Origin: an uncultured Actinomycetes bacterium
GTDB lineage: Bacteria; Actinomycetota; Thermoleophilia; Gaiellales; JAICJC01
Direction: 5' to 3'
DNA: 64,000 nt
Assembly: GCA_963723785.1 (NCBI GenBank)
Contig: CAVRSB010000020.1
Location: 25,543 to 89,542 of the forward strand
Shown: piece by piece, positions 4,778 through 64,000 of the stretch
Numbering within the stretch: the stretch's first letter is position 1
Layout: each line of letters starts with the position of its first letter
The notes under the pieces: model-generated
Told to the model about the DNA's origin: nothing
What the model saw: the letters and a program-made list of their open reading frames with translations, nothing else
Databases searched by the model: none
Position numbers and translations under genes: made by a program

Positions 4778-6479
4778 GTGAACCGCTTCCTGCGTTTGCT
4801 CTTGCCATCTGTCTGCGCCGCAGCCACCCTCGGGCTGATTGCCCCGGGCGTCGCCACGGCCGGCACCTACACCGTCACCACCAACACCGCCAACGACGTC
4901 AGCGGCTGGGAGTTCACGCACGCCTCGGGGTTCGTGGGTTGCTCGCGGCTCAGCTACCCGGCCGTGTGTGCCGCCAACGACGTCGCCCGGCCGACGCCGC
5001 TTCGCATCTTCGGCTCCGGCGATGCGATCGCAACCGGCGTTGGCCTGTGGACGTGGTATGCCCCGCTTACCACCACCATCGTCAAGGGGTCTGTGAGCGT
5101 CGCCTACAAGACCACCGCTCCCGGAACCAGCGTCTACCTCAAGGCCCGCACCCGATCGGAGTCGTTCGAGAGCGTGGACAAGCTCGACCAGACCACCGGC
5201 GACGGGTCCAATACCTGGGCGATTCCGGCCAACCGGCAGGTGATCGGGTTGGCGCTTCGATCAGACGTCAAGCACACCTACGGTGACAAGTGGGCCAACA
5301 CCCTTCGCATCAGCACGCTCACCGTCACGCTGTCGGATACCACCGCGCCGACCGTTTCCGTTACCGGCCCACTGACCCTGGGAAAATGGCTCAACCAGGC
5401 CCAGAAGGTGTGCCTGACCGCGACTGCCGATGACGCCGGCGCGGGCGTCGCCTCGATCGAGCTCGACGACCAGAGCGGTCGCGCGCTCGATTCCTACAAC
5501 GTGCCGGTGCAGAGTGCCACCCAGCCCGGCATGCCGTCCCTCAAGCACGACCTGTGCGTGGTGCCGTCCACCCTCGGCGACGGCGTCCACCAGCTCAAGG
5601 TGGTAGCGCGCGACGCAGCCTCCGAGACGGCGACCCAATCGCTGGCGGTGGACGTCGACACCGACGCGCCGACGGCCAAGGATGAGGTCCCGACCGATCG
5701 CACCATCGATCGCCGCGCACCGGTGTCCTTCTCGGTCGATCCGGGAGCCAGCGGACTCTCACAGTTCACCGCCTCGCTTGACGGCGTGGCAATGGCGATC
5801 TCGGGAGCGCGCGCCTCGCTACAGCCGACTGCAGACTTCACATTGGGCGTTCACACCGTGCAGTGGTCTGCCACCGATGGTGCAGGGAACGTCGGCCGTG
5901 GGCAGTGGACGTTCACCGTGACCGACGCGCTTCCCACCAGCATCACCGTGTCAGGCGTGCACCGGATCATCCCCGGACGGTCGGCACGGCTCACGTTTCG
6001 CGTGCTGGGCGACGCCAACGCTGTCGCAGGAGCTCGCGTGCTGCTGCAGACGAGGATCGGCTCCCATGCCTACGGCGTTGGGCGCACGCTGACGGCGTCG
6101 GCGACCGGAACCGTGATCGTCACCGTCCGCCCCAGGCAGACGACCACGTATCGGCTATCACTGGTGTCAGCGCCGGCGGTCGCGGCTGCACGCACGGTGG
6201 TCGTGGCCCAGCGCCTTCGGCTTGCCGCCGGCGCTCTCCGCGTCCGCGTCGGACACCTGATTCGACTGACCCCGTGGGTGGCGTCACACCAGGGCCATTT
6301 CCGCGTGCGGGTGGAACTGCACACACGCAATGGATGGCGGTTGGTCGGTCGGCCGCGGATCAACACGACCTTCAAGGTGCAGGCCGCTGGCCCGTGGGCG
6401 GTACCTCTTCCGGGCGGTCGCGCCGGCAGGATCGGCGACCACCCGCATCACCCGCGTGGTCGCGATTCGGGTCAGCTGA
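4778..6479 (+). CDS. Secreted protein with repeated Ig-like / HYR-like domains, function unknown
   Basis: GTG 4778 is preceded by GAAAGGA. The signal peptide is VNRFLRLLLPSVCAAATLGLIAPGVATA. An HYR-like segment GVHTVQWSATDGAGNVG is present. The last ~30 aa (..GRYLFRAVAPAGSATTRITRVVAIRVS) and TGA 6477-6479 are in the +1 frame after ~6385. Confidence 0.6.
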
Positions 6480-50677: not shown

Positions 50678-52372
50678 ATGATCACCCGCGCATCGCGGTT
50701 CCTCATGCCCACGTTGAAGGACGACCCGGCCGACGCCGAGGCCGTCAGCCACCGCCTGCTGGTGCGAGCCGGGTATGTCCGACAGGTGGGGTCGGGGCTC
50801 TACACCTTCCTGCCGCTCGGCTGGAAGGTGATGCAGCGGATCGCAGCGATCCTGCGCGAGGAAATGGATACGCTGGCGAATGGAAGTGTCGATGCCGGTG
50901 CTGAACCCGGCCGAACTGTGGCGCGAGACCCAGCGGTACGACGTCGACAACCTGTTCCGGCTGGAGGACTCGTCCGGCAAGCAGTACGTGCTGGCGATGA
51001 CCCACGAGGAGTGCTTCACCTTCCACGCTGCCCGCGAGATCCGCTCCTATCGGGAGCTGCCGCAGGTGTGGTACCAGATCCAGACCAAGGAGCGGGACGA
51101 GCCGCGGCCGAAGAGCGGGATCCTGCGCACCCGCGAGTTCATGATGAAGGATTCGTACAGCTTCGACCGAGACGACGACGGGCTGGATGCGTCGTATGAC
51201 CGGCACATCGAGGTGTATCGACGGATCTTCGAACGGTGCGGCCTGGCGACCTGGATGGTGGAGTCGGATACCGGCATGATGGGCGGCAAGTCGGCCCACG
51301 AGTTCATGGCGCCCAGCCCGTCGGGCGAGGATCGCCTGGTGCTGTGCTCGAACTGCGACTACGCCGCCAATCTCGAGGTCGCGCGCTCGATCCCGCGGCC
51401 GCCCGTGTTTCCTGACGCGTTGGATGCGCCCCAGCAGGTGGAGACGCCCGACGTGACCACCATCGAAGGGCTGGCAGAGTTTCTGGGGGTGGACGAGGCG
51501 GCCACCGCCAAGGCGATGCCGGTGGTGGCCGAAGGGCAGGTCGTGCTGGGGCTGGTGCGCGGTGACGACCGGCTGCACCAGCTGAAGATGCAGAAGGCGC
51601 TCAAGTCCGACTTCCGACCCGCCACTGCAGAAGAGATCCGTTCCACCTTCGGTGCCGAGCCGGGATCGATCGGGCCGGTGGGCGTCGACGTGCGGGTGAT
51701 CGCCGACGAGTCGCTTGCGCGACGGTCAGTTCGTTTCCGGCGCGAACGTGACCGGGCACCATCTGCTGGGCGTCCAGGCCGGACGGGATTTTCAGGCCGA
51801 GTTTCACGATCTGCGCGAGGTATCCGATGCCGAGACGTGCCCAAGCTGCGGCACCGGTACGTTGCGGGTGGAGCGGGCCATCGAGGTGGGCAACATCTTC
51901 AAGCTGGGTACCCGGTTCTCAGAAGCTCCTGGGGGCCACCTATCTGGACGAGTCCGGTTCCGAGCATCCGATCGTGATGGGCAGCTACGGCATCGGGCTG
52001 GCCCGGATCATGGCCTCGGTGGTGGAGCAGTCCCACGACGAGAAGGGCATCATCTGGCCGGCCGCGCTGGCACCGTTCGATGTGCACATGGTCGTGATCG
52101 GTGAGCCCGGTGCGCCGCAGCTGGAAGCTGCCGACACGATCGCCGCCGGGCTGGACGCCCGCGGCCTGCGGGTGTTGCTGGACGACCGCGATATGGGCCC
52201 CGGGGCGCGCTTTGCCGACGCCGAGCTGATCGGGATCCCGGTTCGGGTGACGGTGGGCAAGCGCACCGCCAGCGACGGCACCGCCGACGTGCAGGTGCGG
52301 CGGGGCCGCGAGCAGACGTCGCTGGCGGTGGCCGACGTGCCCGATGCGGTTGTGCAGGCGCTCGCCGAGTGA
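50678..52372 (+). CDS. proS: Proline--tRNA ligase (3 frame changes as assembled)
   Basis: The N-terminus is MITRASRFLMPTLKDDPADAEAVSHRLLVRAGYVRQV. Class II motifs (..FRLEDSSGKQYVLAMTHEE.., TREFMMKDSYSF), the INS editing region and the anticodon-binding C-terminus are present. The frames step 2>0>1>2. Confidence 0.92.
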
Positions 52373-52950: not shown

Positions 52951-53470
52951 GTGGCGCGCTCCGGGTCGAGCTGCTGCGCCAGGGTGGCGCGGGCGCGATG
53001 CAGACGTGATTTGACGGTGCCCGGCGGCAGGTCGAGCAACTCGGCGGTCTCCTCCATCGACATGCCCACAATGTCGCACGCGGTGATGACGGTGCGAAAG
53101 TCGAGATCGAGGCCGGCCAGAGCATCCATCAGGTCGATGGTGGCGGGGGTATCGACGCTGTCGACACCGCCGGCACCTCGTCGACCGGCTGGGGAGTGCG
53201 CTTGCGCCGCTCGATCACGTCGTAGGCCTTGCGCACGACGATCCGGTAGATCCACGTCGAGAAGCGGGCATCACCGCGGAAGCGGTCGAGCGCCCGCCAG
53301 GCCGAGATCAGGCCTTCCTGCACGCAATCGCGCGCGTCCGCCTCGGAGGAGGTGATGCGCAGCGCGAGCGTGTACAGGCGGTCCTGGTAGCGCACCACCA
53401 GCTGCTCGAAGGCCGCGGCGTCGCCGCGGGCGGCCTTTCCGGCCAGCTTCTCGTCAGACTCCTCGCGCAC
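52947..53470 (-). CDS. ECF (sigma-70 group IV) RNA polymerase sigma factor (frame change as assembled)
   Basis: Region 2 is AAAFEQLVVRYQDRLYTLALRITSSEADARDCVQEGLISAWRALDRFRGDARFSTWIYRIV. Region 4 is ..FRTVITACDIVGMSMEETAELLDLPPGTVKSRLHRAR. The start is GTG 53470. The ORF extension across tRNA-Pro was rejected. Confidence 0.85.
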
Positions 53471-53586
53471 AGCCGGATGGTATGCGCGGGTACGGTCGCG
53501 AAGTGGGATTGAGATGGCCGCCGACTGGTTCACTGGCACTTTGACCGTCTGGGAGGGCGTGGGGTTCCCGATATACTCGGCGGTCT

Positions 53587-53660
53587 CGGGGCGTGGCGCA
53601 GCCTGGTAGCGCACCCGGCTGGGGGCCGGGCGGTCGCAGGTTCAAATCCTGCCGCCCCGA
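53587..53660 (+). tRNA. tRNA-Pro (anticodon GGG)
   Basis: The sequence folds as a cloverleaf. Acceptor CGGGGCG/CGCCCCG; D arm GCGC..GCGC; anticodon stem CCCGG/CCGGG with loop CTGGGGG; T arm GCAGG-TTCAAAT-CCTGC; discriminator A. No CCA is encoded. Confidence 0.9.
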
Positions 53661-53682
53661 CTAGAGGAGTTTGGCTCAACCA
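53616..53682 (+). repeat. attL-like direct repeat (3' part of tRNA-Pro + 22 nt)
   Basis: CGGCTGGGGGCCGGGCGGTCGCAGGTTCAAATCCTGCCGCCCCGACTAGAGGAGTTTGGCTCAACCA is 67/67 identical to 60069-60135. Confidence 0.9.
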
Positions 53683-53735
53683 AGCGGGTACGTTGCTATC
53701 GGCGGTTTCTGCGATTCGTGTTCTACGCTAAGCGG

Positions 53736-53779
53736 CGTCCCTCGGGCGTCCCTCGAAGGATTTTCGGTGTCCGAGGGAC
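53736..53779. promoter_or_regulatory. Array of (C/T)GTCCCTCG sites near the left island end (two direct, 11-bp phased, plus one inverted)
   Basis: CGTCCCTCG occurs at 53736-53744 and 53747-53755. The inverted copy CGAGGGACA lies at 53772-53780. Confidence 0.5.
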
Positions 53780-54015
53780 AGCATTCCGCTGCCAGCCGAC
53801 TGAAACACTTAGTACAAAAGTGTCAGAAGTGTTTGAACCCGCTCCTAGAGCGGTAGATGAGGCCGCTGTCTTCCCATAGCTCGGGGATAGTGAGAGGCTG
53901 CACGAACCGGGCCGATCCCTTTTGTTGGCTCCACTACCAGGCAGCGACCCGGATGGGCCATAGCGAGTCACTCGCCCTGGTGTCAATGAGACGCTGCGGC
54001 GTGGGAGGTGTGACG

Positions 54016-54258
54016 CTAGCGCTGTTGAGGATCGAGATCCGATACCGGCGCGGGCGTCGAAAAGCGCACGTGGTGGGCGCCGCTGAACTCCTCGAAGAGT
54101 TTCTCGACCTCGGCGGTCCGCTTCTCGGTGATCATGAGCCGCAGTTCGTGTTTGTGCCAGGTGCAGAGGTCGGCGAGGCGGGGTATGTGGTCAGAAGAGG
54201 CGACGTAGCCTGCTTGGGTTACGCCGGGTCGGTCGCACCTGGGCCAGTTGCACGTCAC
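54016..54258 (-). CDS. Hypothetical small Cys/His-containing protein (80 aa)
   Basis: This is an intact ORF beginning MTCNWPRCDRP..LCTWHKHE.. (C-x4-C ... C-x2-H), possibly a zinc ribbon. It is the last gene of the minus-strand cluster in the island. No family is recognised. Confidence 0.4.
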   Translation of the reverse strand: MTCNWPRCDRPGVTQAGYVASSDHIPRLADLCTWHKHELRLMITEKRTAEVEKLFEEFSGAHHVRFSTPAPVSDLDPQQR

Positions 54259-54327
54259 AGCCGCACCCGGAGGCTCTGATCGCCGGACCGGAGGTTCGGG
54301 TGCTTGGCCGAATGTGTCACTTGGCTG

Positions 54328-55298
54328 CTACTGAGTGAGGGAGACGGAGTTGGCGTAGTTGGTGATGATATCCGCCCGGGAGGCGCGCTGGAGGGATTGT
54401 TGGAGTCGTATCCGGTGAACGTGCCGTCGATTACCTTGCCGCCGTTGCCCGAGCACGAGCCCGGCCCGATGCCGCCGGAGCAGCCGGAGATCGAGAAATA
54501 GACGAACGCCACAACTGTGGCCTGGGCGTTGGTGCCGTTGCCGAAAGGATCCTGCACGACCGGAACTACGACTGTGACCGGCCACGACATGGTGTCCCAA
54601 GGCGCTTGGCTGAGGTTCACACCCGGCTGTGGACCGTTGCCGGTCTTGGATTTTGTGATGCACGAGCCGATCTGGAGGGTGCCGGTCTGGATCGTGCCGT
54701 GCATGATGCCGTCGAGTTGAGCTTCGCCTGAGCCGGCGGTGGCGTAGGTGCAGGCGGTGCCGGCCGTCACGCCCGCGGCGGGGAGCTGGATCGCTCCGGC
54801 GTTCGAGGACGATGTCCCGCAGCTGCCGCCGTAGATCGAGGCTGTGGCGCCGACCTGGACGCATTCGGCTGCGACCGCGAACGGCACCACGCCGTCGGTG
54901 ATCGAGTGGATGCTCTGAATGGTCGCCACAGCGGTGGCGCTGACGTGGACGGTGTTGATGCCGAAGATCTTGGCGAAGTACGTGGGCGCGTCGTAGTCCA
55001 CCGTGACCTTCACCGAATCTCCCGGTACCGTGTTGGTGACCAGCGAGTAGTTTCCGGTTTCGCCGGGCTTTGAGTTCTTACCAAAATACGTGGCCGCAGC
55101 GTTCGACCACTGACCGGTGGGAATCTGACTGGCGCCGGCCAGGGCCGAAGCGTCTGCGACGGACTGGGCCTGGGCTTTGTCCTGATACCACGCGCCCGCG
55201 TCAATCGCCAGGGCGCACATGCCGAGCACGACGAACATGAAGAGGCAGATCATTGGGAGGGTTTGACCCGACTCTTTGTGACGTTTCGCGTGGCTCAC
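54328..55298 (-). CDS. TadG/TadE-like Flp pseudopilin family protein, paralogue 1 (1 frame change near the 3' end as assembled)
   Basis: GTG 55298 starts the gene. The N-terminus is ..KESGQTLPMICLFMFVVLGMCALAIDAGAWYQDKAQAQSVADASALAGA, which looks like a Tad N-terminal domain. The C-terminus, corrected by paralogy, ends ..ADIITNYANSVSLTQ at 54328. Paralogue 2 ends ..NNNTAYTTALTQ. Confidence 0.7.
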
Positions 55299-55304
55299 GA
55301 CCCG

Positions 55305-55333
55305 AGTATCCGAGAGGTATCGAATCGATGCAA
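55305..55333 (-). promoter_or_regulatory. Candidate sigma-70-type promoter TTGCAT-N17-GATACT placed for a leaderless transcript of TadG-like paralogue 1
   Basis: On the minus strand, the -35 TTGCAT lies at 55333-55328 and the -10 GATACT at 55310-55305. The GTG start at 55298 is 6 nt after the -10. This is sequence pattern only. Confidence 0.35.
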
Positions 55334-55540
55334 TACCACAAAATGTAAAGTTAATTGGGGTGAGCACCCCCAGGGACGTACGCACAATGACAAAACTACA
55401 GCACAGCAACGCGAACCTTACGGAAAGCGGGCTGTGCTGCAGTTCACAGTGTAGGTGTTACCTGGGTTCTCTTACGTAAAGCTATTTGACGCTAGTTCCA
55501 CCTCGCAACACTCGTCATGACAGGAGTACGCGGGCTGCTG

Positions 55541-56104
55541 CTACTTAGGGCCGCCGCCGTTGCCGCCCTTGTTGGAGTTCGCGGGTGGATCAGGTTGGGT
55601 GGGGTTTCCGTGTTGGTCTCCGGCCTTGCCGTGTTGGTCTCCGGATTTGCCGTGCTGGCCGGCCTTGCTCTTTCCACCGCTGGCGGCTGTGGAGATGGTC
55701 GCGCCTTTGTCGACTCCTTTGGCGGTGGTGGTGGTTGCCAGTGTTGAGATCTGGCTGCCATGGCTGTCGGAGCCAGAGGTCGCGGCTTTGGTGGCCTGGT
55801 GATCGGACTTGCCATTCGTGGAGGCGATGGCAGAGACCGCCTTGCCTTTGTCGCGCCCGGTCTCGTCCGTTGTCCGGGCCAGGTTTGAGACTGTCCCGCC
55901 GTGGTTGGCGGGGTGGTTGGGCTTGGTAGTGGAGTGGTCGCTGTGTCCCGGGTTGATTCCCAGGCGTTGCAGCACGGCTGAGGCATTGTCCGACGCTGCC
56001 GCCGGCAGCCCCGAGGCATACGCCACTCCACTGGTCGCGACAAGTGTTGTCGCCGCAATCACGGCGAAGGGGAGTCGTCTGGTGGGAGAAAGGTTTACGA
56101 TCAT
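55541..56104 (-). CDS. Secreted repeat protein rich in His/Gly/Lys/Thr (187 aa), function unknown
   Basis: AGAAGGGG lies 8 nt upstream of ATG 56104. The signal peptide ends VATSGVAYA. Internal repeats are HGGTVSNLARTT..GRDKGKAVSAIAS and HGSQISTLATTT..GVDKGATISTAAS. The C-terminal heptads KAGQHGK/SGDQHGK/AGDQHGN are encoded by three 21-bp tandem repeats (55608-55670). Confidence 0.6.
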   Translation of the reverse strand: MIVNLSPTRRLPFAVIAATTLVATSGVAYASGLPAAASDNASAVLQRLGINPGHSDHSTTKPNHPANHGGTVSNLARTTDETGRDKGKAVSAIASTNGKSDHQATKAATSGSDSHGSQISTLATTTTAKGVDKGATISTAASGGKSKAGQHGKSGDQHGKAGDQHGNPTQPDPPANSNKGGNGGGPK

Positions 56105-56125
56105 GGTAGTGACCCCTTCTGTGGT

Positions 56126-56290
56126 TTACAGAACGCCGATTACACTTGTGAGTTCGCCGCTGATAGCGGTAGAGAGCAGTCCCAGTGTCACAACTACGGC
56201 GATCGTGATGACCGCTAGCACAACGGCGTATTCCGCCATCGTTTGCCCGCTCTCGCCGGAGCGGTGGGTGATGTTGAGCATGTCCGTCAT
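56126..56290 (-). CDS. Flp/Fap-family type IVb prepilin
   Basis: AAGGGAGG lies 5 nt upstream of ATG 56290. The product is MTDMLNITHRSGESGQTMAEYAVVLAVITIAVVVTLGLLS... It has the Flp processing motif G/xxxxEY followed by a hydrophobic helix. The product is 54 aa. Confidence 0.8.
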   Translation of the reverse strand: MTDMLNITHRSGESGQTMAEYAVVLAVITIAVVVTLGLLSTAISGELTSVIGVL

Positions 56291-56344
56291 GGTTGCCTCC
56301 CTTGGTGATGGTCGACACTGGGTCATGGTTCCGGCTACGGGTGT

Positions 56345-56512
56345 TTAGTTGTCGCCGATCGCGTTTGCGAGCGGATCGAGCATTTCGGGGTGAAGGGTGA
56401 CGAGAGTGATCAGTAGGATGATCAAAACGACTGCGATGATCGCGGCCCAGACGAGCACCATGTCTCGTTTTATCTGGTCTCGTTGAGGCGCTGCTTTTCG
56501 TGGAGGTGTCAT
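56345..56512 (-). CDS. Small single-pass membrane protein (55 aa), hypothetical
   Basis: ATG 56512 overlaps the stop of the upstream TadG-like gene (ATGA). The TM helix is MVLVWAAIIAVVLIILLITLVTL. Confidence 0.45.
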   Translation of the reverse strand: MTPPRKAAPQRDQIKRDMVLVWAAIIAVVLIILLITLVTLHPEMLDPLANAIGDN

Positions 56513-57523
56513 TGTGTGAGAGCTGTTGTGTAGGCGGTGTTGTTGTTGGGGTCGTATGTGCCGCTGGTGCCGGTGGAATCGGCGCTGTCGAGCGCTACGA
56601 ACACACCGTTGATTTGTTTGCCGTCGTTGTTTTTGCAGTAGCTGGGATGGTCTGGGTCGCCGCAGCTGGTGATCACGAAGTAGGCGAATCCGACGACGGT
56701 CATGGGGCTGCTGGTGCCGTTTGGCCAGACGCTCTGCCCGGAGGGATTGGTGAGCACGGGGATGAGCACGAGCTGGGGGCTGTTGGAGTCCTTCACCGTC
56801 GCCGGTGTGCGTGGTGAAGTCGACGATCTGGTCGGCGGTCTGCCAGTTGGTGATGCGCGTGTTGAGGCCCTGGGCGGTCGGCCCGCTGTTGTCCCCCGGC
56901 TTGGTTTGGAGGGTTTCCCCAAGCGTGATCGGGCATACGGGCTGGTCGCCGGTGATCTCGTCCTGGTAGACGTTTGCGCCGCTGGGGACGGGGCAGTTGG
57001 CGCCGGCGACGTAGGGGAGGCTGAGTGCGCCGTTGTTGGCGTTGGCGGTGGTCTTGGTGTAGATCGAGTAGGGCTGGCCGGGGACGTAGGTGCCTTGCAG
57101 CACGCCCCAGGGCATGGCGTTCACGCCGTTGATGGTGGTGAACGACTCGACCGTGGCCTGGGCGGTGGCGGTCTCGGTGACCGAGTCGAGACCGAAGATG
57201 GTGGTGAAGAACGTGTCGACATTTCGGGTCGCCGTTACGGTCACCGAGTCGTCCGTGACTTGGTCGGTCGTGTTGCTGACCGTGAGTGAGTCTGACGGCA
57301 GCCCGTTTTCTGCGTACTGCTCGTTTGCCGCGTCGCGAGCCTGGGAGGTGCCGGAGGGGATCTTTGATGCTCCCGCAAGTGCCGCCGCGTCGGCGGCGTT
57401 TTGGAGTTCGCGGCGGTTCACCAGCCAGTTGCCGCCGTCGACCACCAGGCCGCTGACACCGAGCAGCGCCGTCATCAACACGACCAGCAGCACCAGCGTC
57501 TGTCCGCTCTCGCTGGTGGTCAT
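56509..57523 (-). CDS. TadG/TadE-like Flp pseudopilin family protein, paralogue 2 (1 frame change ~56805 as assembled)
   Basis: ATG 57523 starts the gene. The N-terminus is MTTSESGQTLVLLVVLMTALLGVSGLVVDGGNWLVNRRELQNAADAAALAGA. The C-terminal half (56509..56922 frame) aligns with paralogue 1 (..VVGFAYFVITSCG..GKQINGVF..). Confidence 0.72.
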
Positions 57524-57731
57524 GCCCGTTCCGCCCGATCCGCACGCGATTGGATCGCGTCGGTAACCCCCTCCAACAGCTCCATGGTGGACAAGAACCA
57601 CCACGCGGCCAAATCCTGCGGTTCACGCCGAGAATCCCCCTTCTGGGGGACTCGACCGAGTGTGGCAACCATAAGCTTGCCTTAGGCCGGTGCCCTGTCG
57701 ATAGATCCTTATCGCAGGAAACTCCCGAGAT

Positions 57732-59138
57732 GTGTGTCTTGGGATCTGTGGACTTCCAGTGGCAGTCGATTCTCCCAGCAACACCAGCGCAGCCTCACGT
57801 CTCACCGCGCTCTATCAGGAGCATGCTGGCAGCGTGTTTGGCTTCGCCATGTATCTCACCGGACGGCGGGAGGACGCCGAGGACGTCGTCCAGCACACGT
57901 TCATCCAGGCCTTCCGGATGCTCGAGGCTGGAGACGAGCTGATGTATCCCCGCTCGTGGCTGATGCGTGCGACCAAGAACCAGGCTCTCAACCTGATCCG
58001 CGATCGGCATGAGTTCCCGACCGAGAACATCGTGCTGGAAGCACGGCCCACGACCGATGCCGACCGTCGCGAGGCCGAGGAACTCGCCTTTGTGCGCGCG
58101 ACTCTGTGGACGCTGCCCGAAAACCAGCACCACGCGTTCGTGCTGAGACACTGGAGCGGGCTTTCCCAAAACGAGATCGCCGAGGTACTCGCCACCTCGC
58201 CGGCAGCCGTTGAGTCACTCCTGACCCGAGCCCGCAGCGCACTGGTCGAGGAACGCACCGTGACCGGCGGTGAGTGCCGAAGTGTGCGCACCCGATTGGT
58301 TGAAGCCGCAGAACTCACCGCGGCGCAGGTCGCGCACGTCGGCTCCTGCCGAAAATGCCGCAAGGCGCAGAACCGGTTGGCACGTGCCGCCGGGTTCGCC
58401 GCCACGTTCGTGCTCCTGCCCCGGCCACACGTCGCTCACGCACTCGCATCGGCCATCCCCGGATTCACACCACCTGCCGCAGGCATCGCCGGACTCGGCG
58501 CGGCCGGGGCTGGAAGCACCGCTGCACCCGCAGGGATCGTCTCCACCTCAAGCTCCGTGGCGGCCGCCGCGAAGGCCACCATCACTGCCAAGGTCGTCGT
58601 CGCCGCCATCACCGCGACCGCGGCCATCGCGGTCGTTCACCCGGTGAGAGAGCCGATCACCACCGCAATCCGAGACGTGGTGCCGGGGCTCTCCGCCGCT
58701 CACAATCCCTCGGTATCCGATTCCCCGTCAACACCCGGTAGCTCTGCCACAACCGGCAACGGCGATGGCCCACCCGCCGGGCACGGAACACCGAACGCCC
58801 ACGCCAACGCCAACGCTCACGGAAGCACGACCGCACATGGCCAAAGCGCCGCGCACGGCAAGACCGCTGCTCACGGAAAGAGTGCGGCCCACGGCAACTC
58901 AGGCGGCAATAGCGCGGCCCACAGCCAGGGCGCCACACACAAGCAGGCCCACCCCAGCAGGGCGCGGGCAGCACCGGCGTCGCCAAGGGCAACCCCCACA
59001 CAACCACAACCGGAACCACAAAGACGACTGGAAACGGCAAAGCGAACAGCAAAACCGGCCGGTGCCGCCGAGAACACAACCACCGGCAAAGGCAAGGCTC
59101 CAGCCACGCCACCCGGCAAAGCCAAGGGCAAGCCATAA
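57732..59138 (+). CDS. ECF sigma factor continuous (as assembled) with a ZAS-type anti-sigma domain, TM region and His/Ala/Gly/Lys-repeat tail
   Basis: Region 2 is LYQEHAGSVFGFAMYLTGRREDAEDVVQHTFIQAFR. Region 4 is HAFVLRHWSGLSQNEIAEVLATSPAAVESLLTRAR. The HxxxCxxC motif (HVGSCRKC) follows, then hydrophobic segments and AHGKTAAHGKSAAHGNS repeats. The junction contains GTGA (58260-58263). Removing one C of the run 58258-58259 would restore two separate genes. Confidence 0.7.
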   Translation: MCLGICGLPVAVDSPSNTSAASRLTALYQEHAGSVFGFAMYLTGRREDAEDVVQHTFIQAFRMLEAGDELMYPRSWLMRATKNQALNLIRDRHEFPTENIVLEARPTTDADRREAEELAFVRATLWTLPENQHHAFVLRHWSGLSQNEIAEVLATSPAAVESLLTRARSALVEERTVTGGECRSVRTRLVEAAELTAAQVAHVGSCRKCRKAQNRLARAAGFAATFVLLPRPHVAHALASAIPGFTPPAAGIAGLGAAGAGSTAAPAGIVSTSSSVAAAAKATITAKVVVAAITATAAIAVVHPVREPITTAIRDVVPGLSAAHNPSVSDSPSTPGSSATTGNGDGPPAGHGTPNAHANANAHGSTTAHGQSAAHGKTAAHGKSAAHGNSGGNSAAHSQGATHKQAHPSRARAAPASPRATPTQPQPEPQRRLETAKRTAKPAGAAENTTTGKGKAPATPPGKAKGKP

Positions 59139-59298
59139 AGCGGGAACACAGATCTGGCGGAGAGCCCGGAGCGTTCGGTCAGCAATCACTGTGGCTTCGG
59201 ATCGACCAACCTGGTACATAGCATGTCGGTGCGATCTGGGTACGGTACGATGGGGGGCTAAGCCCGACTAAGTGTCCACGACAGTCCGCGTGTACCCG

Positions 59299-59680
59299 CT
59301 AGGGATGCGTTGGGTGTGGAGGGTGGGTCTTGGTCGCGGTTTCGGTCACGGTCATAACGCTGACCACCGTGGAGACTTCCGTGGTGGTCGCAGTGAGCGT
59401 CGGAGGCACTGTGACCGTCTTGGTGGATGTCAATGTCTTCCGCTGCACTGGCACGGCGATCACCTGAGTTGAATGGGCGGTCGTCGGCGGTACCGGATCG
59501 TTGTCACCTTGGCAGCTACCCGAACGGTCTTCAAACCAGGTGTCTCCCGAGGGACCGCGCCTTGACCTGACGGGTGATGGTGATCGTGTACACCGCGGCA
59601 CTACGCTTGTCCGTGCCGCCACCTACCGTGCTCCCCACCGCAAAGCCGGCACCACATACAGCGATGAGGCCAATGCCCAT
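59299..59680 (-). CDS. Hypothetical membrane-anchored Thr/Val-rich protein (1 frame change as assembled)
   Basis: ATG 59680 gives MGIGLIAVCGAGFAVGSTVGG (TM). After a break at ~59560 the sequence continues ..TVTVPPTLTATTTEVSTVVSVMTVTETATKTHPPHPTHP. No family is recognised. Confidence 0.4.
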
Positions 59681-59946
59681 TGGAATGAAATACCGCTGAT
59701 CCAGGTTTAGATCACGCAACAAGGTCAAACCCCGGAAGGTTGGAAACCACGCACGCGCCGTTAGAAGATACCCGTTCGCTTCGGCCGCGACACACCACTC
59801 CCGGGATGACCCCGGGGTCGTCCGGTAGCGGCCGCGTGCCCCTTCCGCACTGTGCCGAGGCCTCACGCACCAATCGAGGCGTTGGGGGCGGCCGAGGCAT
59901 AGCACCGATCTGGTTTTCTTCACCGCTCACGAGGCCTCACCCACCG

Positions 59947-59966
59947 CGTCCCTCGCGTGTCCCTCG
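59947..59966. promoter_or_regulatory. Array of (C/T)GTCCCTCG sites near the right island end (two direct, 11-bp phased)
   Basis: CGTCCCTCG lies at 59947-59955 and TGTCCCTCG at 59958-59966. Orientation and spacing match the left-end pair. Confidence 0.5.
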
Positions 59967-60068
59967 AACACCTCGATCCACTGCAAACGACGTGAACCGC
60001 CGACCACTCTCTTTCACGTGTTTAGGCGAAATCCGCTTGGTTGAACCAACCTGAGGCTGCCTTTGGTG

Positions 60069-60135
60069 CGGCTGGGGGCCGGGCGGTCGCAGGTTCAAAT
60101 CCTGCCGCCCCGACTAGAGGAGTTTGGCTCAACCA
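60069..60135 (+). repeat. attR-like direct repeat (partial tRNA-Pro copy)
   Basis: This copy is identical over 67 nt. It lacks the 5' 29 nt of the tRNA, so it is not a functional tRNA. Confidence 0.9.
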
Positions 60136-60899
60136 GGTGGGTCGTGACTCGCGAGGCGACGCCAGTGGTACGGCGTGGTGGTGGAGACTTTGAGGAAGCC
60201 GGATCGCTCGAGGATGGGGCGTGAATATTCGGTGGAGTCGCTGTGGAGGAGTGCCTTGCCCGCCGCCAGGGCCGACCGGGCTCGGGCAGCAGTGAGTGCT
60301 CTGTAGATACCTTGGCGGCGCCAAGCTTCTAACGTGGCTCCACCCCAGATTCCGGCGAAGTCGGTGCCCGCGACGGGTTCGAGCCGTCCCGCGCTCACAA
60401 TCTGTCCGTCGGCCTCCGCCACCCACAATTCCATCCCGTCACCGAGTGCCAAACGACGCAGAAGCGCCGGAGCCGACTGATCTGAAATCGTGCCATCGAA
60501 GACCATGTCCTGCATAGCGGCCATCGCCCGAACGTCAGCTTCCTCCCATACCTGGCGCAGCGTGACACCGGCGGGCGGGCGGGCGTCGACGTCGAGCAAC
60601 TGCGCTCGTCCGATCATGATCGCCTCTGGCTCTTGACGCTCGAATCCATTCTGGAGCAGTGCCTCGTGAAGTCCAGGGGCGCGATCGTGACCGCGGGTCT
60701 TCCACTCAACGTGCGTGATCTCGGGATCCTCGCGGTAATGATCGAGGGCCTGTGCCACGAGCTGCGCGACGGGCTCGGCCTCGGTACCGTCGAGGTGTGG
60801 AGAGGTCACGAACCCTCGACCCCCAGCGAACCTCACCAAGCGAAGCGGGCCGAGGTGGGTCACAGCGACGGCACTCGGCGTTTCTGCGTCGGTGCGCAA
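60129..60899 (-). CDS. GNAT-family N-acetyltransferase
   Basis: This is an intact 256-aa ORF. The acetyl-CoA binding motif is ..WRRQGIYRALTAARARSALAAG... The stop and last two codons lie inside the right island repeat. Confidence 0.75.
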   Translation of the reverse strand: MRTDAETPSAVAVTHLGPLRLVRFAGGRGFVTSPHLDGTEAEPVAQLVAQALDHYREDPEITHVEWKTRGHDRAPGLHEALLQNGFERQEPEAIMIGRAQLLDVDARPPAGVTLRQVWEEADVRAMAAMQDMVFDGTISDQSAPALLRRLALGDGMELWVAEADGQIVSAGRLEPVAGTDFAGIWGGATLEAWRRQGIYRALTAARARSALAAGKALLHSDSTEYSRPILERSGFLKVSTTTPYHWRRLASHDPPG

Positions 60900-60983
60900 C
60901 TGTCGGTCATAGGCCGCGAGAAAGTCTTTAGCGTTCGTGCCGAGACCTTAGCGTGGCTGAACCGGATCCGGCGCGGAGGGAAC

Positions 60984-62225
60984 TCAGGCGCTTTCGGACG
61001 GTGACTCGGGTCTCGTGGCTGCCGTTTGGGCCACCGTTGGGGGTGGGCGGAGCCAGAGGGTTACGTGGCGTGGCTGCAGCGTGACATTGACAACGTCAAT
61101 TACTCCGGCTGCGACCGCGTCGAGTTCTATTTCGCCTCGGAGCTTTCCGGTGAACCCGCCGAGTGTTTTGACTGCGTCGTACCGATCACGATAGAAGCGG
61201 TGATCGACGCTGCGCTGGATCCGAGTCCGAAGCGGCTGGAACAAGCCGGCGACGACGAGCGTCGAGAACGTAACGGCGAGTGCTCCAGACTGGCCGGTAA
61301 GCGACCGAAACGCCCATCCCAGGAGGGAGATTCCGCCCAGGTAGAGCAGCCCAAGGGCGGCGATCAGCACTGCGTACACCAGCGTCTTTCGGACAATCAC
61401 ATCGATCTCGTACAGCCGGTACTTGAGGATCCCGATTCCAAGCGCGATCGGGAGCGCCATCACGCCGATCAGGCCGAGGTCCCCAAGCACCGAGTTGGTC
61501 CCGGCGAACGCGAGCATCGCGCAGAGAACACTGATGACGCCACCACCGACGAGCCATTTCAGCTGCTGCCGACGCTCGCCGGTTGACCGGCGAAATGCGG
61601 AGATCTGGGTGCACAGCCAGGCAAGGAGAACCACAAACAACACCGCAAAGAAGATGTTCTGCGCGATCGCCCACAAGGCTTCGACGCCGGTCGGGTGGTT
61701 GATCTGCCGGATGTCTCCGCTGTTGTCCGCGATCTGGATATGGCCGACCGCGATCGCGCCAGCAGCGATCGCGAACGCTCCGAACACCCGACAAGCCGCC
61801 GCTGAGAGATAGATCCGAAGCGCCCAGCGCCATCGCGGCGTTGGCAGGTGGCCGTCGGGAAAAAGGAGCACCGCAAGCCCGAACAGGACGATCGCAGTTG
61901 ACCAACTCGGTTGGAGCAAGACCGCGAGCCACCCGACTGGCAGCGAGTCATGATCGCGGTACACGAGGGTGCTGTAGAGGGATGCGTCGCCGCTGACCAC
62001 AAACGACAGGGCGATACCAAGGAGGATCCAGCCGGTGGGATGGCGTGGTCTTCGCGTAGCCACCACCGCGCCGACGACGCCAAACGCCAGGATCAGAGGC
62101 GCAGTGGCCGCATTCGCGGCGAGGCTTCTGTGAGCCGACTCGAGCAGCGGTATGGACGCTGCCATCAGCCCCAGTAGCAGTGCCATCAGCACCGTTGGGG
62201 CCTTCGGTGAGGCGACCGAAATCAC
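60984..62225 (-). CDS. Polytopic membrane protein resembling the N-terminal sensor module of actinobacterial histidine kinases, no kinase domain (paralogue 1)
   Basis: This is an intact 413-aa ORF. Motifs shared with 62690..63928 are FPDGHLP..RWRW, QLKWL, (K/R)YRLYEIDVI(V/I)R(K/R)TLVY, LTGQSGALAVT.STL and FQPLR.RIQ..VDHRFYR..YD. No H-box or ATPase motifs are present. Confidence 0.65.
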   Translation of the reverse strand: MISVASPKAPTVLMALLLGLMAASIPLLESAHRSLAANAATAPLILAFGVVGAVVATRRPRHPTGWILLGIALSFVVSGDASLYSTLVYRDHDSLPVGWLAVLLQPSWSTAIVLFGLAVLLFPDGHLPTPRWRWALRIYLSAAACRVFGAFAIAAGAIAVGHIQIADNSGDIRQINHPTGVEALWAIAQNIFFAVLFVVLLAWLCTQISAFRRSTGERRQQLKWLVGGGVISVLCAMLAFAGTNSVLGDLGLIGVMALPIALGIGILKYRLYEIDVIVRKTLVYAVLIAALGLLYLGGISLLGWAFRSLTGQSGALAVTFSTLVVAGLFQPLRTRIQRSVDHRFYRDRYDAVKTLGGFTGKLRGEIELDAVAAGVIDVVNVTLQPRHVTLWLRPPPTVAQTAATRPESPSESA

Positions 62226-62342
62226 ATCACCACACTATCCCCCACCCGCTCCGGAAACGTTACGAGACCCAGCTTCACGTGCGGTTTGTCGCATAGGATG
62301 GTGCCAGGGTATGACCGAAGGCGGCAGGCGAGGAGGGTGTCG

Positions 62343-62633
62343 ATGCATGCAGTGATCGGACGGGTGAGGATCAAGCCAGGGTTCGAGGATCAGACGCTGG
62401 CCATGATCGGTGAACACGGTGTGGCCATGCTCCAGGGCATGGCGGGCTCGGCCGGGGGATATTGGGCGCGGACGCTGGATGGGGAGGACATGATCCAGCA
62501 TTCCGTCTGGCTGTTTGACACGGAGGCGAACGCCAGAGGCGCCGAAGCGACGTTCAACACGCTGCGTGACATGCCGGAGGCGCCCGCGACCTTCATCAGC
62601 GTCGATGTGTGCGAGGTGATCGGTCAGGCGTAA
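62343..62633 (+). CDS. ABM (antibiotic biosynthesis monooxygenase-like) / dimeric alpha-beta barrel domain protein
   Basis: GGAGGG is followed 6 nt later (spacer TGTCG) by ATG 62343. The 96-aa product reads MHAVIGRVRIKPGFEDQ..HSVWLFDTEANARGAEATF.., which is consistent with the ABM fold. The assignment is tentative. Confidence 0.5.
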   Translation: MHAVIGRVRIKPGFEDQTLAMIGEHGVAMLQGMAGSAGGYWARTLDGEDMIQHSVWLFDTEANARGAEATFNTLRDMPEAPATFISVDVCEVIGQA

Positions 62634-62689
62634 TGCGGATTCGCTCGAGTCGTAACGATCCCGGAACGTGAATTTGCGACACTGACTGT

Positions 62690-63928
62690 GTGAATACTCG
62701 TTTGAAGATGGCGGCATGGGCGCTGTTCGGGTTGGTCGTCCTGCTGAATTTGGTGGCTGTGTACTACAGCTTCGTGACGCGGGAGTACCACGACTCAACC
62801 AGCTGGGGCAACAGCGGCCTGGTGTCGACGCTCGGGCTCGGATTGACCACGTTCATGTTCCCGCTGGTGGGTGTGGTGATCGCTGTTCGCCGGCCGCAGA
62901 ACGCCATCGGGTGGTTGATGCTCGCGATTGGATTCGTGTGGGGTCTGGAGGGAGTGGTGTCCGGATACGCGACCGATGTGATGTCGTTCCGCCACGGTTC
63001 GCGCGAGGTCGCAGGCTACGCGGCGGCGGTCGACGGCATGCTGTGGCTGCCCGGCGTCGGCCTGATCGGGACGTTCCTGATCCTGCTCTTTCCCGACGGG
63101 CATCTGCCGAGCCGGCGGTGGCGGTGGGTCGGATGGGTGGCCGGATTCACCATCGGGCTCGGGTCGCTGGTGATCCTGTTCAGCCCTGGGCCGATGACCG
63201 ACAGCTCGTATCCGACAGAGGTAAACCCGCTCGGCATCGGTGCCATCGGCACGCTGCTGGACTTCGGTCACCTCGTCATCATCCTGCTGCCGGTGGCGAT
63301 CCTGGGCGCAGCTGCAAGCCTGGTGTCGCGCTACCGCGCCGCGCACGGCGCTGACAGGTTGCAGCTCAAGTGGCTGGCCGCCTCCGCGGCGCTTGTGGCG
63401 GTGCTCTACGGGGTCACCGAGGTGCTGTCGATCACGATTGCGTCGAACAATCGGGTTCCGGGGTGGCTTTTGGTGATGCAGGATCTGGCACTGCTCAGCT
63501 TCGCGCTGATCCCGATCTCGATCGGATTCGCGGTGTTCCGCTACCGGCTCTACGAGATTGACGTGATCATCCGCCGGACACTCGTCTACACGACTCTGAT
63601 CGGATCGCTCGCGATCGTCTATCTGGGCGGCATCTATGTCGTCGGCGACGTTCTGCAGACGCTCACTGGGCAATCCGGGGCGCTGGCGGTGACAGTCTCG
63701 ACGCTGGCGGTGGCCGCCGCGTTCCAGCCGCTGCGATCAAGGATCCAGAGCACAGTCGACCACCGCTTTTACCGCGCCAAATATGACACCGGCATGACGC
63801 TGGACGCGTTCAGCGGGCGGCTGCGCCAGCAGATCGACCTGGACGCGCTTCACGCAGAGGTGCTGACCGTCGTCAGAGACGCCCTCGAGCCCAGCCAGGC
63901 CACGCTCTGGTTCCGGTCGGAGCGGTAG
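62690..63928 (+). CDS. Polytopic membrane protein, kinase-less sensor-module paralogue 2
   Basis: This is an intact 412-aa ORF. It shares the motif set listed for 60984..62225 and is divergently oriented to it. Confidence 0.65.
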   Translation: MNTRLKMAAWALFGLVVLLNLVAVYYSFVTREYHDSTSWGNSGLVSTLGLGLTTFMFPLVGVVIAVRRPQNAIGWLMLAIGFVWGLEGVVSGYATDVMSFRHGSREVAGYAAAVDGMLWLPGVGLIGTFLILLFPDGHLPSRRWRWVGWVAGFTIGLGSLVILFSPGPMTDSSYPTEVNPLGIGAIGTLLDFGHLVIILLPVAILGAAASLVSRYRAAHGADRLQLKWLAASAALVAVLYGVTEVLSITIASNNRVPGWLLVMQDLALLSFALIPISIGFAVFRYRLYEIDVIIRRTLVYTTLIGSLAIVYLGGIYVVGDVLQTLTGQSGALAVTVSTLAVAAAFQPLRSRIQSTVDHRFYRAKYDTGMTLDAFSGRLRQQIDLDALHAEVLTVVRDALEPSQATLWFRSER

Positions 63929-63964
63929 CCGGAACCTTCTCCCGGCGGCGTATGTCTGATCACC

Positions 63965-64000
63965 ATGCGACGACATCGAGTTCTCTGGCTGGCGGTCGGG
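63965..64000 (+). CDS. 5' end of an ORF (MRRHRVLWLAVG..), runs out of the window
   Basis: ATG 63965 is open to the window end. The beginning looks like a signal peptide. Only 12 codons are visible. Confidence 0.25.
   Translation, partial: MRRHRVLWLAVG

Follow-up and report, generated by a model that had tools for sequence, protein, structure and literature searches.

Actinomycete elements of the pSAM2 type integrate in a tRNA-Pro gene, and pSAM2 itself encodes int, xis, rep, and tra. Cis-mobilizable elements (CIMEs) retain both attachment sites, attL and attR, without integration or transfer genes, and the att copy with the intact target gene is where an incoming element inserts (PMC5704250). 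Among the examples named in that source are CIME19258 and CIME302 of Streptococcus thermophilus and S. agalactiae (Pavlovic 2004; Bellanger 2011), and the toxicogenic region TR1/TR2 of Streptomyces is given there as an actinobacterial case (Zhang and Loria 2017). The vcr islands at ssrA in Dehalococcoides are described as site-specifically mobilized (PMC3146451). Here we analyzed a 64-kb stretch of DNA from an uncultured actinobacterium (contig CAVRSB010000020.1; the whole stretch is called the window below), in which an island of 6,386 bp, at 53,683-60,068, is integrated at a tRNA-Pro(GGG) gene between two exact copies of a 67-nt sequence and shows no recombinase in any of its six reading frames. 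Judged from its sequence, the island is a CIME in structure, in an uncultured lineage. We consider it highly probable that this locus is an integrated, att-flanked, recombinase-less island.

The tRNA-Pro(GGG) gene lies on the forward strand at 53,587-53,661, with its end placed at 53,661 or 53,660, and is intact according to ARAGORN and Rfam (RF00005; 62.1 bits, E = 5.7e-12); it is the sole Rfam match between 53,000 and 60,600. A repeat search revealed that 53,616-53,689 recurs at 60,069-60,142 as a direct repeat of 74 nt at 97% identity with two mismatches, of which the first 67 nt are exact. These 67 nt consist of the last 45 nt of the tRNA gene plus 22 nt beyond it, and they begin at tRNA position 30, the third base of the 5' strand of the anticodon stem. 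The left copy (53,616-53,682, forward strand; tRNA positions 30-74 plus 22 nt downstream) is the attL core, which was also delimited by alignment with the empty site described below. The right copy (60,069-60,135, forward strand) is the attR core, made up of a displaced 45-nt fragment of the tRNA 3' end and the 22 nt, and according to ARAGORN and Rfam it is not a tRNA gene. A 44-nt sub-pattern of the repeat occurred exactly twice in the window, with 0.00 occurrences expected from 100 shuffles. On the right, a GNAT gene on the reverse strand (60,129-60,899; Pfam GNAT families) reaches into the repeat, as its stop codon (60,129-60,131) and two further codons up to 60,135 fall within the attR core. 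The island has a GC content of 0.630; that of the left flank is 0.697 and that of the right flank 0.640. The coordinates of the two repeats and the overlap with the last GNAT codons agree with the original prediction for this DNA, which had read them as the footprint of site-specific integration into a tRNA 3' end; that reading is now backed by the repeat, the regenerated tRNA, and an empty site.

The empty site was found in L007, a 1,008-bp JGI contig with one full tRNA-Pro gene and the GNAT gene directly after it. Positions 43-581 of L007 align with window positions 53,152-53,689 at 96.8% identity, and positions 508-1,008 align with 60,069-60,569 at 98.2%; in this alignment, L007 reads as the left side of attL, the core, and the right side of attR. 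The arrangement expected without the insert, tRNA-Pro and then GNAT, therefore exists in a strain 97-98% identical to that of the window. The island itself was present at the same tRNA gene in five other contigs from different samples, namely L001 and L002 (~97.7% identical to the window), L089 (95.5%), L093, and L094, the last being a divergent variant. Both repeats surround the island in four independent assemblies (L001, L002, L089, and L093), and L094 ends before attR; the earlier worry that the second repeat might be an assembly duplication is thereby ruled out.

Three related species lack an island beside tRNA-Pro (L012, L008, and L010). In L012, whose flank has 92% nucleotide identity, what comes after the tRNA is a variant of the same downstream sequence, along with fragments of GNAT. 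In L008, the tRNA precedes a homologue of the membrane-protein gene found at 61,045-61,475 in the window, and the right flank is therefore ancestral chromosome, not a second element. With L007, L012, L008, and L010 all free of the island at tRNA-Pro, the locus is polymorphic for its presence, and the outcome that had been thought damaging to an integrated island, the same repeat in every relative, was not encountered. The exact GNAT protein was found on ENA metagenome contigs of up to 226 kb, and the nearest relatives of the prolyl-tRNA synthetase (ProRS) of the window came from metagenome-assembled genomes of uncultured Actinomycetes of the 'MFD' series (95% and 86% amino acid identity), followed by Gaiellales and Thermoleophilia.

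Because the source is an error-prone long-read metagenome assembly, the search for a recombinase was made independent of reading frame. Using Pfam profiles on each island open reading frame (ORF) and on all six frames of 53,662-60,071 with stop codons masked, we detected no integrase, resolvase, large serine recombinase, transposase, or excisionase; the six-frame scan returned only Sigma70_r2/r4, Tad, Tad_C, and a weak Flp_Fap match. The earlier observation that none of the island ORFs looks like a recombinase or an excisionase thus withstood a profile scan covering six frames, and no recombinase emerged once frame errors were allowed for. Likewise, no remnant of int, xis, rep, or tra was found in the island with Pfam, PHROGs, or NCBIfam, and by its gene content the island is neither an autonomous island, nor an actinomycete integrative and conjugative element (AICE), nor a phage satellite of the kind of the phage-inducible chromosomal islands (PICIs). 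Four genes are frameshifted in the window, i.e., ProRS (51,880-51,980), the extracytoplasmic function (ECF) sigma gene beside the tRNA (53,129), TadG (~56,810), and a gene for a 126-aa protein (~59,560). All of them are intact in the sister contig L001 (ProRS, 563 aa; sigma, 222 aa; TadG, 355 aa; and the 126-aa gene), and the frameshifts in the window are probably long-read assembly errors rather than pseudogenes.

Near both ends of the island we found short repeats that we predict to be the arm sites of an integrase. The sequence GTCCCTCG occurs seven times in the window; six of these are inside the island, five of them in the ~120 nt next to its ends, for which the window-wide density would predict ~0.03 copies. 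The left (P'-type) arm, at 53,735-53,779 on the forward strand, contains two direct copies at 11-nt spacing (53,737 and 53,748) and one inverted copy (53,772-53,779), and the right (P-type) arm, at 59,946-59,968 on the forward strand, contains two direct copies, also at 11-nt spacing, that are identical in L001, L002, and L089. In the variant island of L094, which lies behind a full tRNA-Pro gene, the cargo is 85-89% identical to that of the window (10.6-15.5% diverged) and the flank 93.5% identical (6.5% diverged). Its left end (5,493-5,975) is replaced: 476 nt there differ from the window and hold a 71-aa DUF4177-like gene, two direct copies of GTGATC, and one inverted copy, in the same layout as GTCCCTCG, and its attL flank reads CTATCGGAATGTGGCTCAACCATGCTGG.

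Further symmetry was seen around the core. An inverted-repeat search identified a 13-nt near-palindrome, TTGGTTGAACCAA, near the right end of the island (60,033-60,052, forward strand, with the palindrome at 60,037-60,049), with 90% complementarity; in a circular attP, it would bracket the core together with TTGGCTCAACCAA at 53,671-53,683. They share the pattern TTGG(T/C)T(G/C)AACCAA, and the reconstructed attP folds with the two paired to each other (z = -3.46). As a separate observation, TGGCTCAACCA is kept shortly after tRNA-Pro in two attB alleles of the host (L007 and L012) and in both island variants, with variable bases around it. This near-palindrome, of which a second copy lies at the right end of the island, may be a protein-binding site.

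The extent of the repeat bears on the type of enzyme. According to PMC1762012, which cites Williams 2002, class I tyrosine integrases cross over in the anticodon loop (e.g., that of mycobacteriophage L5) and class II enzymes in the T-loop (e.g., that of Ms6). With crossover positions read here from the extent of identity alone, the identity block of the island extends as expected for class I, in keeping with a class I tyrosine integrase that the island does not encode. L001, L002, and the window each have a 67/67 match between the core copies. The attR of L089 departs from its attL at 2 of the 67 positions, with an attR flank of the L012 type and an attL that keeps the island type; the exchange point therefore lies to the left of CCCCGACT, inside the tRNA part.

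The island also occurs in tandem with an integrase-bearing element. A 78% homologue of the 126-aa island protein is encoded on ENA contig_24547 (L093), where the island is present and where homology to the window runs from position 64,000 down to 53,635, stopping in the T-arm region of the tRNA; the tRNA was not found on this contig. Adjoining the island is a second integrative element, E2 (L093, 16,146-20,549), giving the order E2, hybrid att, island, and attR. About 0.5 kb further on, still within E2, the contig stops, and the tRNA side of E2 is therefore not covered. E2 encodes a Prim-Pol protein (1.8e-7), an AAA_25 protein (6.6e-14), an excisionase-type HTH_17 protein (1.5e-10 after frame repair), and a tyrosine integrase (PF00589; 5e-16, 59.4 bits, with four frame fragments joined) that reads towards the core. 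The integrase motifs LRGGELRAL, HEARHS, and GHASITITQDRYQHL are recognizable, and the protein is 25-28% identical to tyrosine integrases of mycobacteriophages and Streptomyces plasmids.

The identity of E2 to the tRNA starts at position 49, in the T-arm, which is the class II extent, and its 42-nt identity block lies wholly inside the 67-nt repeat. In its P arm, GGCGCAC appears three times with a 10-nt spacing and once more inverted; GTCCCTCG is missing there. We considered whether the island is a deleted form of E2 and rejected this, as tblastx and blastn comparisons of E2 with the window and all other loci showed that they share only the 42-nt core; in the same kind of comparison, the E2 integrase matched nothing in the island. 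The window, L001, L002, L089, and L094 all lack E2. An exact-pattern scan of GTDB genomes for the junction between the tRNA end and the flank gave 0 matches, and scans of viral contigs for the arm repeat, the core junction, the right-end palindrome, and relatives of the E2 AAA_25 protein were all empty.

We compared the divergence of the island with that of its flanks among the carriers. Compared with L001, the window has diverged by 2.75% in the left flank, by 2.55% in the island, where the values of single segments range over 0.5-6.6%, and by only 0.03% in the right flank (60,136-64,000). The carrier populations as a whole are 2.5-5% apart over the island and left flank. From 60,500 rightwards, L089 matches the window exactly, and the 365 nt immediately right of attR contain 8.3% mismatches and are L012-like. 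Owing to these mosaics, the insertion cannot be dated from perfect repeats. The original prediction had taken the 67/67 identity to argue against an ancient decayed remnant; recent insertion does not follow from it, given that the island is common to populations that are 2.5-5% diverged, that a variant of it sits in a lineage ~6.5% diverged, and that attR and attL of L089 disagree at 2 of the 67 positions.

Altogether, we lean towards reading 53,683-60,068 as a non-autonomous, CIME-type integrative island that retains a capacity to be mobilized when an integrase is provided from outside. Several observations weigh against it. Neither an excised circle nor a read across a junction was seen. Inspection by eye of the translated ORFs of the 64-kb window brought up no cognate integrase, and none was found in 10 kb beyond. 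E2 contains the sole integrase seen beside the island and is probably not the source of its cognate recombinase, because its predicted T-arm crossover and GGCGCAC arms differ from the predicted anticodon-stem crossover and GTCCCTCG arms of the island. The proposal that an integrase encoded elsewhere might mobilize the island in trans is thus borne out insofar as an integrase-bearing element uses the same att core in L093, and it falls short in that the T-arm position and arm repeats of E2 are different. Both options of the original prediction, a satellite moved in trans and a lost integrase module, fit an island in which no integrase remnant is left. In addition, L007 is an outgroup to the close island carriers in both flanks, and all close island-bearing contigs are compatible with one ancestral insertion. 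The divergence mosaics indicate frequent homologous recombination or a mixed-strain consensus, either of which could also explain the attR variant of L089, and the attR core and right arm of L093, a noisy assembly, look degraded.

Much of this evidence would also suit an immobile fossil, in which a single ancient integration lost its integrase module and the island has since evolved as chromosome, with island-free strains either predating the insertion or having lost the island when the 67-nt repeats recombined homologously. This alternative is a serious one that we nevertheless hold only tentatively. It accounts for an island shared by populations 2.5-5% diverged, with divergence similar to that of the left flank, for the outgroup position of L007, for the degraded appearance of attR and the right arm in L093, and for the failure of the six-frame island scan, the inspection of the window, and the search of 10 kb beyond to find a cognate integrase; repeat identity could then stem from constraint on the tRNA at attL and from local divergence being very low around attR. 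It is less easily reconciled with arm repeats that are intact and identical in four contigs, with the same cargo behind a different left arm in L094, where the island has diverged about twice as much as the flank, suggesting separate histories, or with the patchy presence at similar distance, L012 and L007 being without the island and L094 with it. A bolder extension of mobilizability, that integrase-free cargo cassettes built from one Tad-pilin/sigma operon with swappable att arms (GTCCCTCG versus GTGATC) exploit unrelated integrases at a shared tRNA-Pro hotspot, appears unlikely.

We also regard it as quite improbable that E2 is the helper, i.e., that its integrase and excisionase move the island alone or as an E2-island composite through the shared core. 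E2 does sit directly against the left att site of the island with int reading towards the core, the location of its 42-nt block within the 67-nt repeat means that its T-arm target is present in all att copies, and tandems of a CIME with an integrative and conjugative element (ICE) or an integrative and mobilizable element (IME) are known to co-transfer (PMC5704250). Opposed to this are the start of tRNA identity at position 49 (class II type) versus position 30 in the island (class I type), the distinct P-arm repeats, the absence of E2 from the window and the four other carriers examined for it, and an array that is only partly seen. That a larger element or tandem array extends beyond these 6.4 kb, which would be only its tRNA-proximal part, with an integrase to the right of GNAT beyond the window, would fit the island-like GC content of the right flank and the occurrence of GNAT homologues in unrelated contexts in other genomes. 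This is very improbable in view of the tRNA-GNAT junction kept at the empty site of L007, the membrane-protein gene of the right flank directly after tRNA-Pro in L008, and the 10 kb to the right of GNAT in L001 and L002, which contain no third tRNA fragment and no integrase Pfam match. Finally, these assemblies are error-prone, as the four frameshifted genes attest, and the second repeat could in principle have been created by long-read metagenome assembly. With both repeats in four assemblies from different samples, the L094 variant behind a full tRNA, and the exact empty site in a separate JGI contig, we give this explanation practically no credence.

The course of events is in part shown directly by the sequences. 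A circular or excised DNA inserted into tRNA-Pro(GGG) by means of an attP whose copy of the tRNA began in the anticodon stem and reached its 3' end, together with about 22-29 nt downstream. Insertion regenerated the tRNA at attL, its 3' part there coming from island-derived sequence, and pushed the old 3' end to attR. The enzyme is most readily envisaged as a class I anticodon-loop tyrosine integrase binding the GTCCCTCG arms. Between its two att sites, the island is now cargo only, comprising an ECF sigma/anti-sigma fusion, two TadE/G-like pseudopilins, a Flp-type pilin, and small envelope proteins. Its further excision or transfer would require a cognate integrase and excisionase from elsewhere in the cell or, alternatively, cis-mobilization in tandem with an element that brings an integrase to the same tRNA; failing that, it could only be lost, through homologous recombination between the 67-nt repeats.

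The predicted cargo is an accessory pilin/pseudopilin module. From left to right, it begins with a possible 80-aa gene on the reverse strand (54,016-54,258) with a CxxxxC...CxWH pattern and without a family match, which has a coding-like GC3 of 0.80 and is partly conserved in L092 and L094. The next five genes are also on the reverse strand. TadE/G-like pseudopilin 2 (54,255-55,298; Pfam Tad, 3.6e-12; Tad_C, 8.5e-8) has 307 aa in the cleaner copy of L001. It is followed by a secreted low-complexity protein of 187 aa, recognized by ORF reading (55,541-56,104), with a signal-peptide-like N terminus and no family match in Pfam, PHROGs, or NCBIfam. The Flp-type pilin candidate (56,126-56,326) matches Pfam Flp_Fap at 1.6e-4, below the gathering score; a 51-aa protein is called in L001, and its neighbor in L092 is also a weak Flp_Fap match. 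A small single-pass membrane protein (56,345-56,515; 38 aa in L001) precedes TadE/G-like pseudopilin 1 (56,509-57,595; Pfam Tad, 4e-14), which is the frameshifted TadG gene described above.

On the forward strand, at 57,732-59,138, lies the gene for an ECF sigma factor (Pfam Sigma70_r2, 7e-13; r4_2, 3e-12; NCBIfam sigma70-ECF) that continues into an anti-sigma-like HxxxCxxC segment, followed by a membrane span and a repeat tail. All of these parts are in one ORF; the HxxxCxxC motif resembles that of zinc anti-sigma factors, and the tail is rich in His, Ala, Gly, and Lys, and no other part of the island differs as much between strains (6.6%). The last gene, on the reverse strand at 59,300-59,680, encodes the membrane-anchored, Thr/Val-rich 126-aa protein. 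PHROGs and NCBIfam searches of the uncharacterized island proteins returned nothing informative and nothing related to mobility. The island does not hold a complete Tad/Flp locus, as the six-frame Pfam scan gave only Tad, Tad_C, and weak Flp pilin matches and none to TadA/CpaF, TadB/C, or a prepilin peptidase.

The same cargo also exists away from any such site. The whole block was found in L092 (7,649-13,140) at 70-82% nucleotide identity, matching window positions 59,057-54,084 and comprising sigma, TadG, the small protein, Flp, the secreted protein, TadG2, and the 80-aa region, with an extra gene for signal peptidase II (Peptidase_A8) between sigma and TadG. In this cargo locus of L092, there is no tRNA, no att-like repeat, and no GTCCCTCG. 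From this match it follows that only 53,683-54,084 and 59,057-60,068 (~0.4 kb and 1 kb) are element specific; the 126-aa gene is the only gene outside the shared block. Pairs of sigma and TadG genes were also present in other chromosomal contexts (L088, L090, and L091).

A few observations concern the flanking genes. The GNAT gene was tried as a synteny anchor and rejected, as homologues with 77-90% identity (L003-L006 and L095) stand in unrelated contexts without a tRNA; ProRS served better. In L088 (359-1,232), a more distant relative, a 76% identical GNAT gene directly follows tRNA-Met, with a sigma-fusion/TadG pair ~7 kb away. In L012, the GNAT gene is broken into at least 5 fragments over 13,184-18,996, split by unrelated DNA that includes a Phe/Cys/Val-rich low-complexity stretch (~15,000-15,500) and a MerR-like gene; this fragmentation may be decay or misassembly. 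Further to the right in the window lie two divergent inverted paralogues of a ~412-aa multi-pass membrane protein without a Pfam family (60,984-62,225, reverse strand, and 62,690-63,928, forward strand), which flank a small ABM-like ORF at 62,286-62,633; the homologue that comes right after tRNA-Pro in L008 belongs with these paralogues.

Automated island finders key on integrase genes and therefore miss att-flanked islands that lack one, and such islands are hardly documented outside Firmicutes and Streptomyces. The contigs described here form a natural series within one uncultured soil actinobacterial lineage, consisting of the empty site, the island alone, the island with an integrase-bearing element, and an arm-swapped variant. 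This series could be used to study how cargo-only islands persist and whether they hitch-hike on unrelated integrases. The concepts of CIME, accretion, and cis-mobilization are already established, and the value of the locus is that of an example, not of a new principle.

Set beside the streptococcal CIMEs, the island likewise keeps both att sites, has no integration or transfer genes, occupies the 3' end of a conserved gene, and shows accretion with an integrase-bearing element. It differs in its uncultured actinobacterial host, in having no ICE-derived remnant, and in a partner that appears to use another crossover position and other arm sites. With TR1/TR2, it has in common an actinobacterial, cargo-only island without its own integrase beside an integrative element at the same att site, where accretion and cis-mobilization occur in the Streptomyces case. 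TR1 is said to be much larger than the present island and, reportedly, was shown by Zhang and Loria in 2017 to move with TR2. The target site here is another one, and the partner is a small Prim-Pol/AAA_25/Xis/Int element. Compared to pSAM2, the actinobacterial tRNA-Pro target and the identity segment from the anticodon region to the 3' end are the same, whereas int, xis, rep, and tra are absent from the island. The vcr islands differ in phylum, target, and cargo and, as described, share with the present island a cargo at a small-RNA gene, direct repeats of the 3' end of that gene, and presence or absence among close strains.

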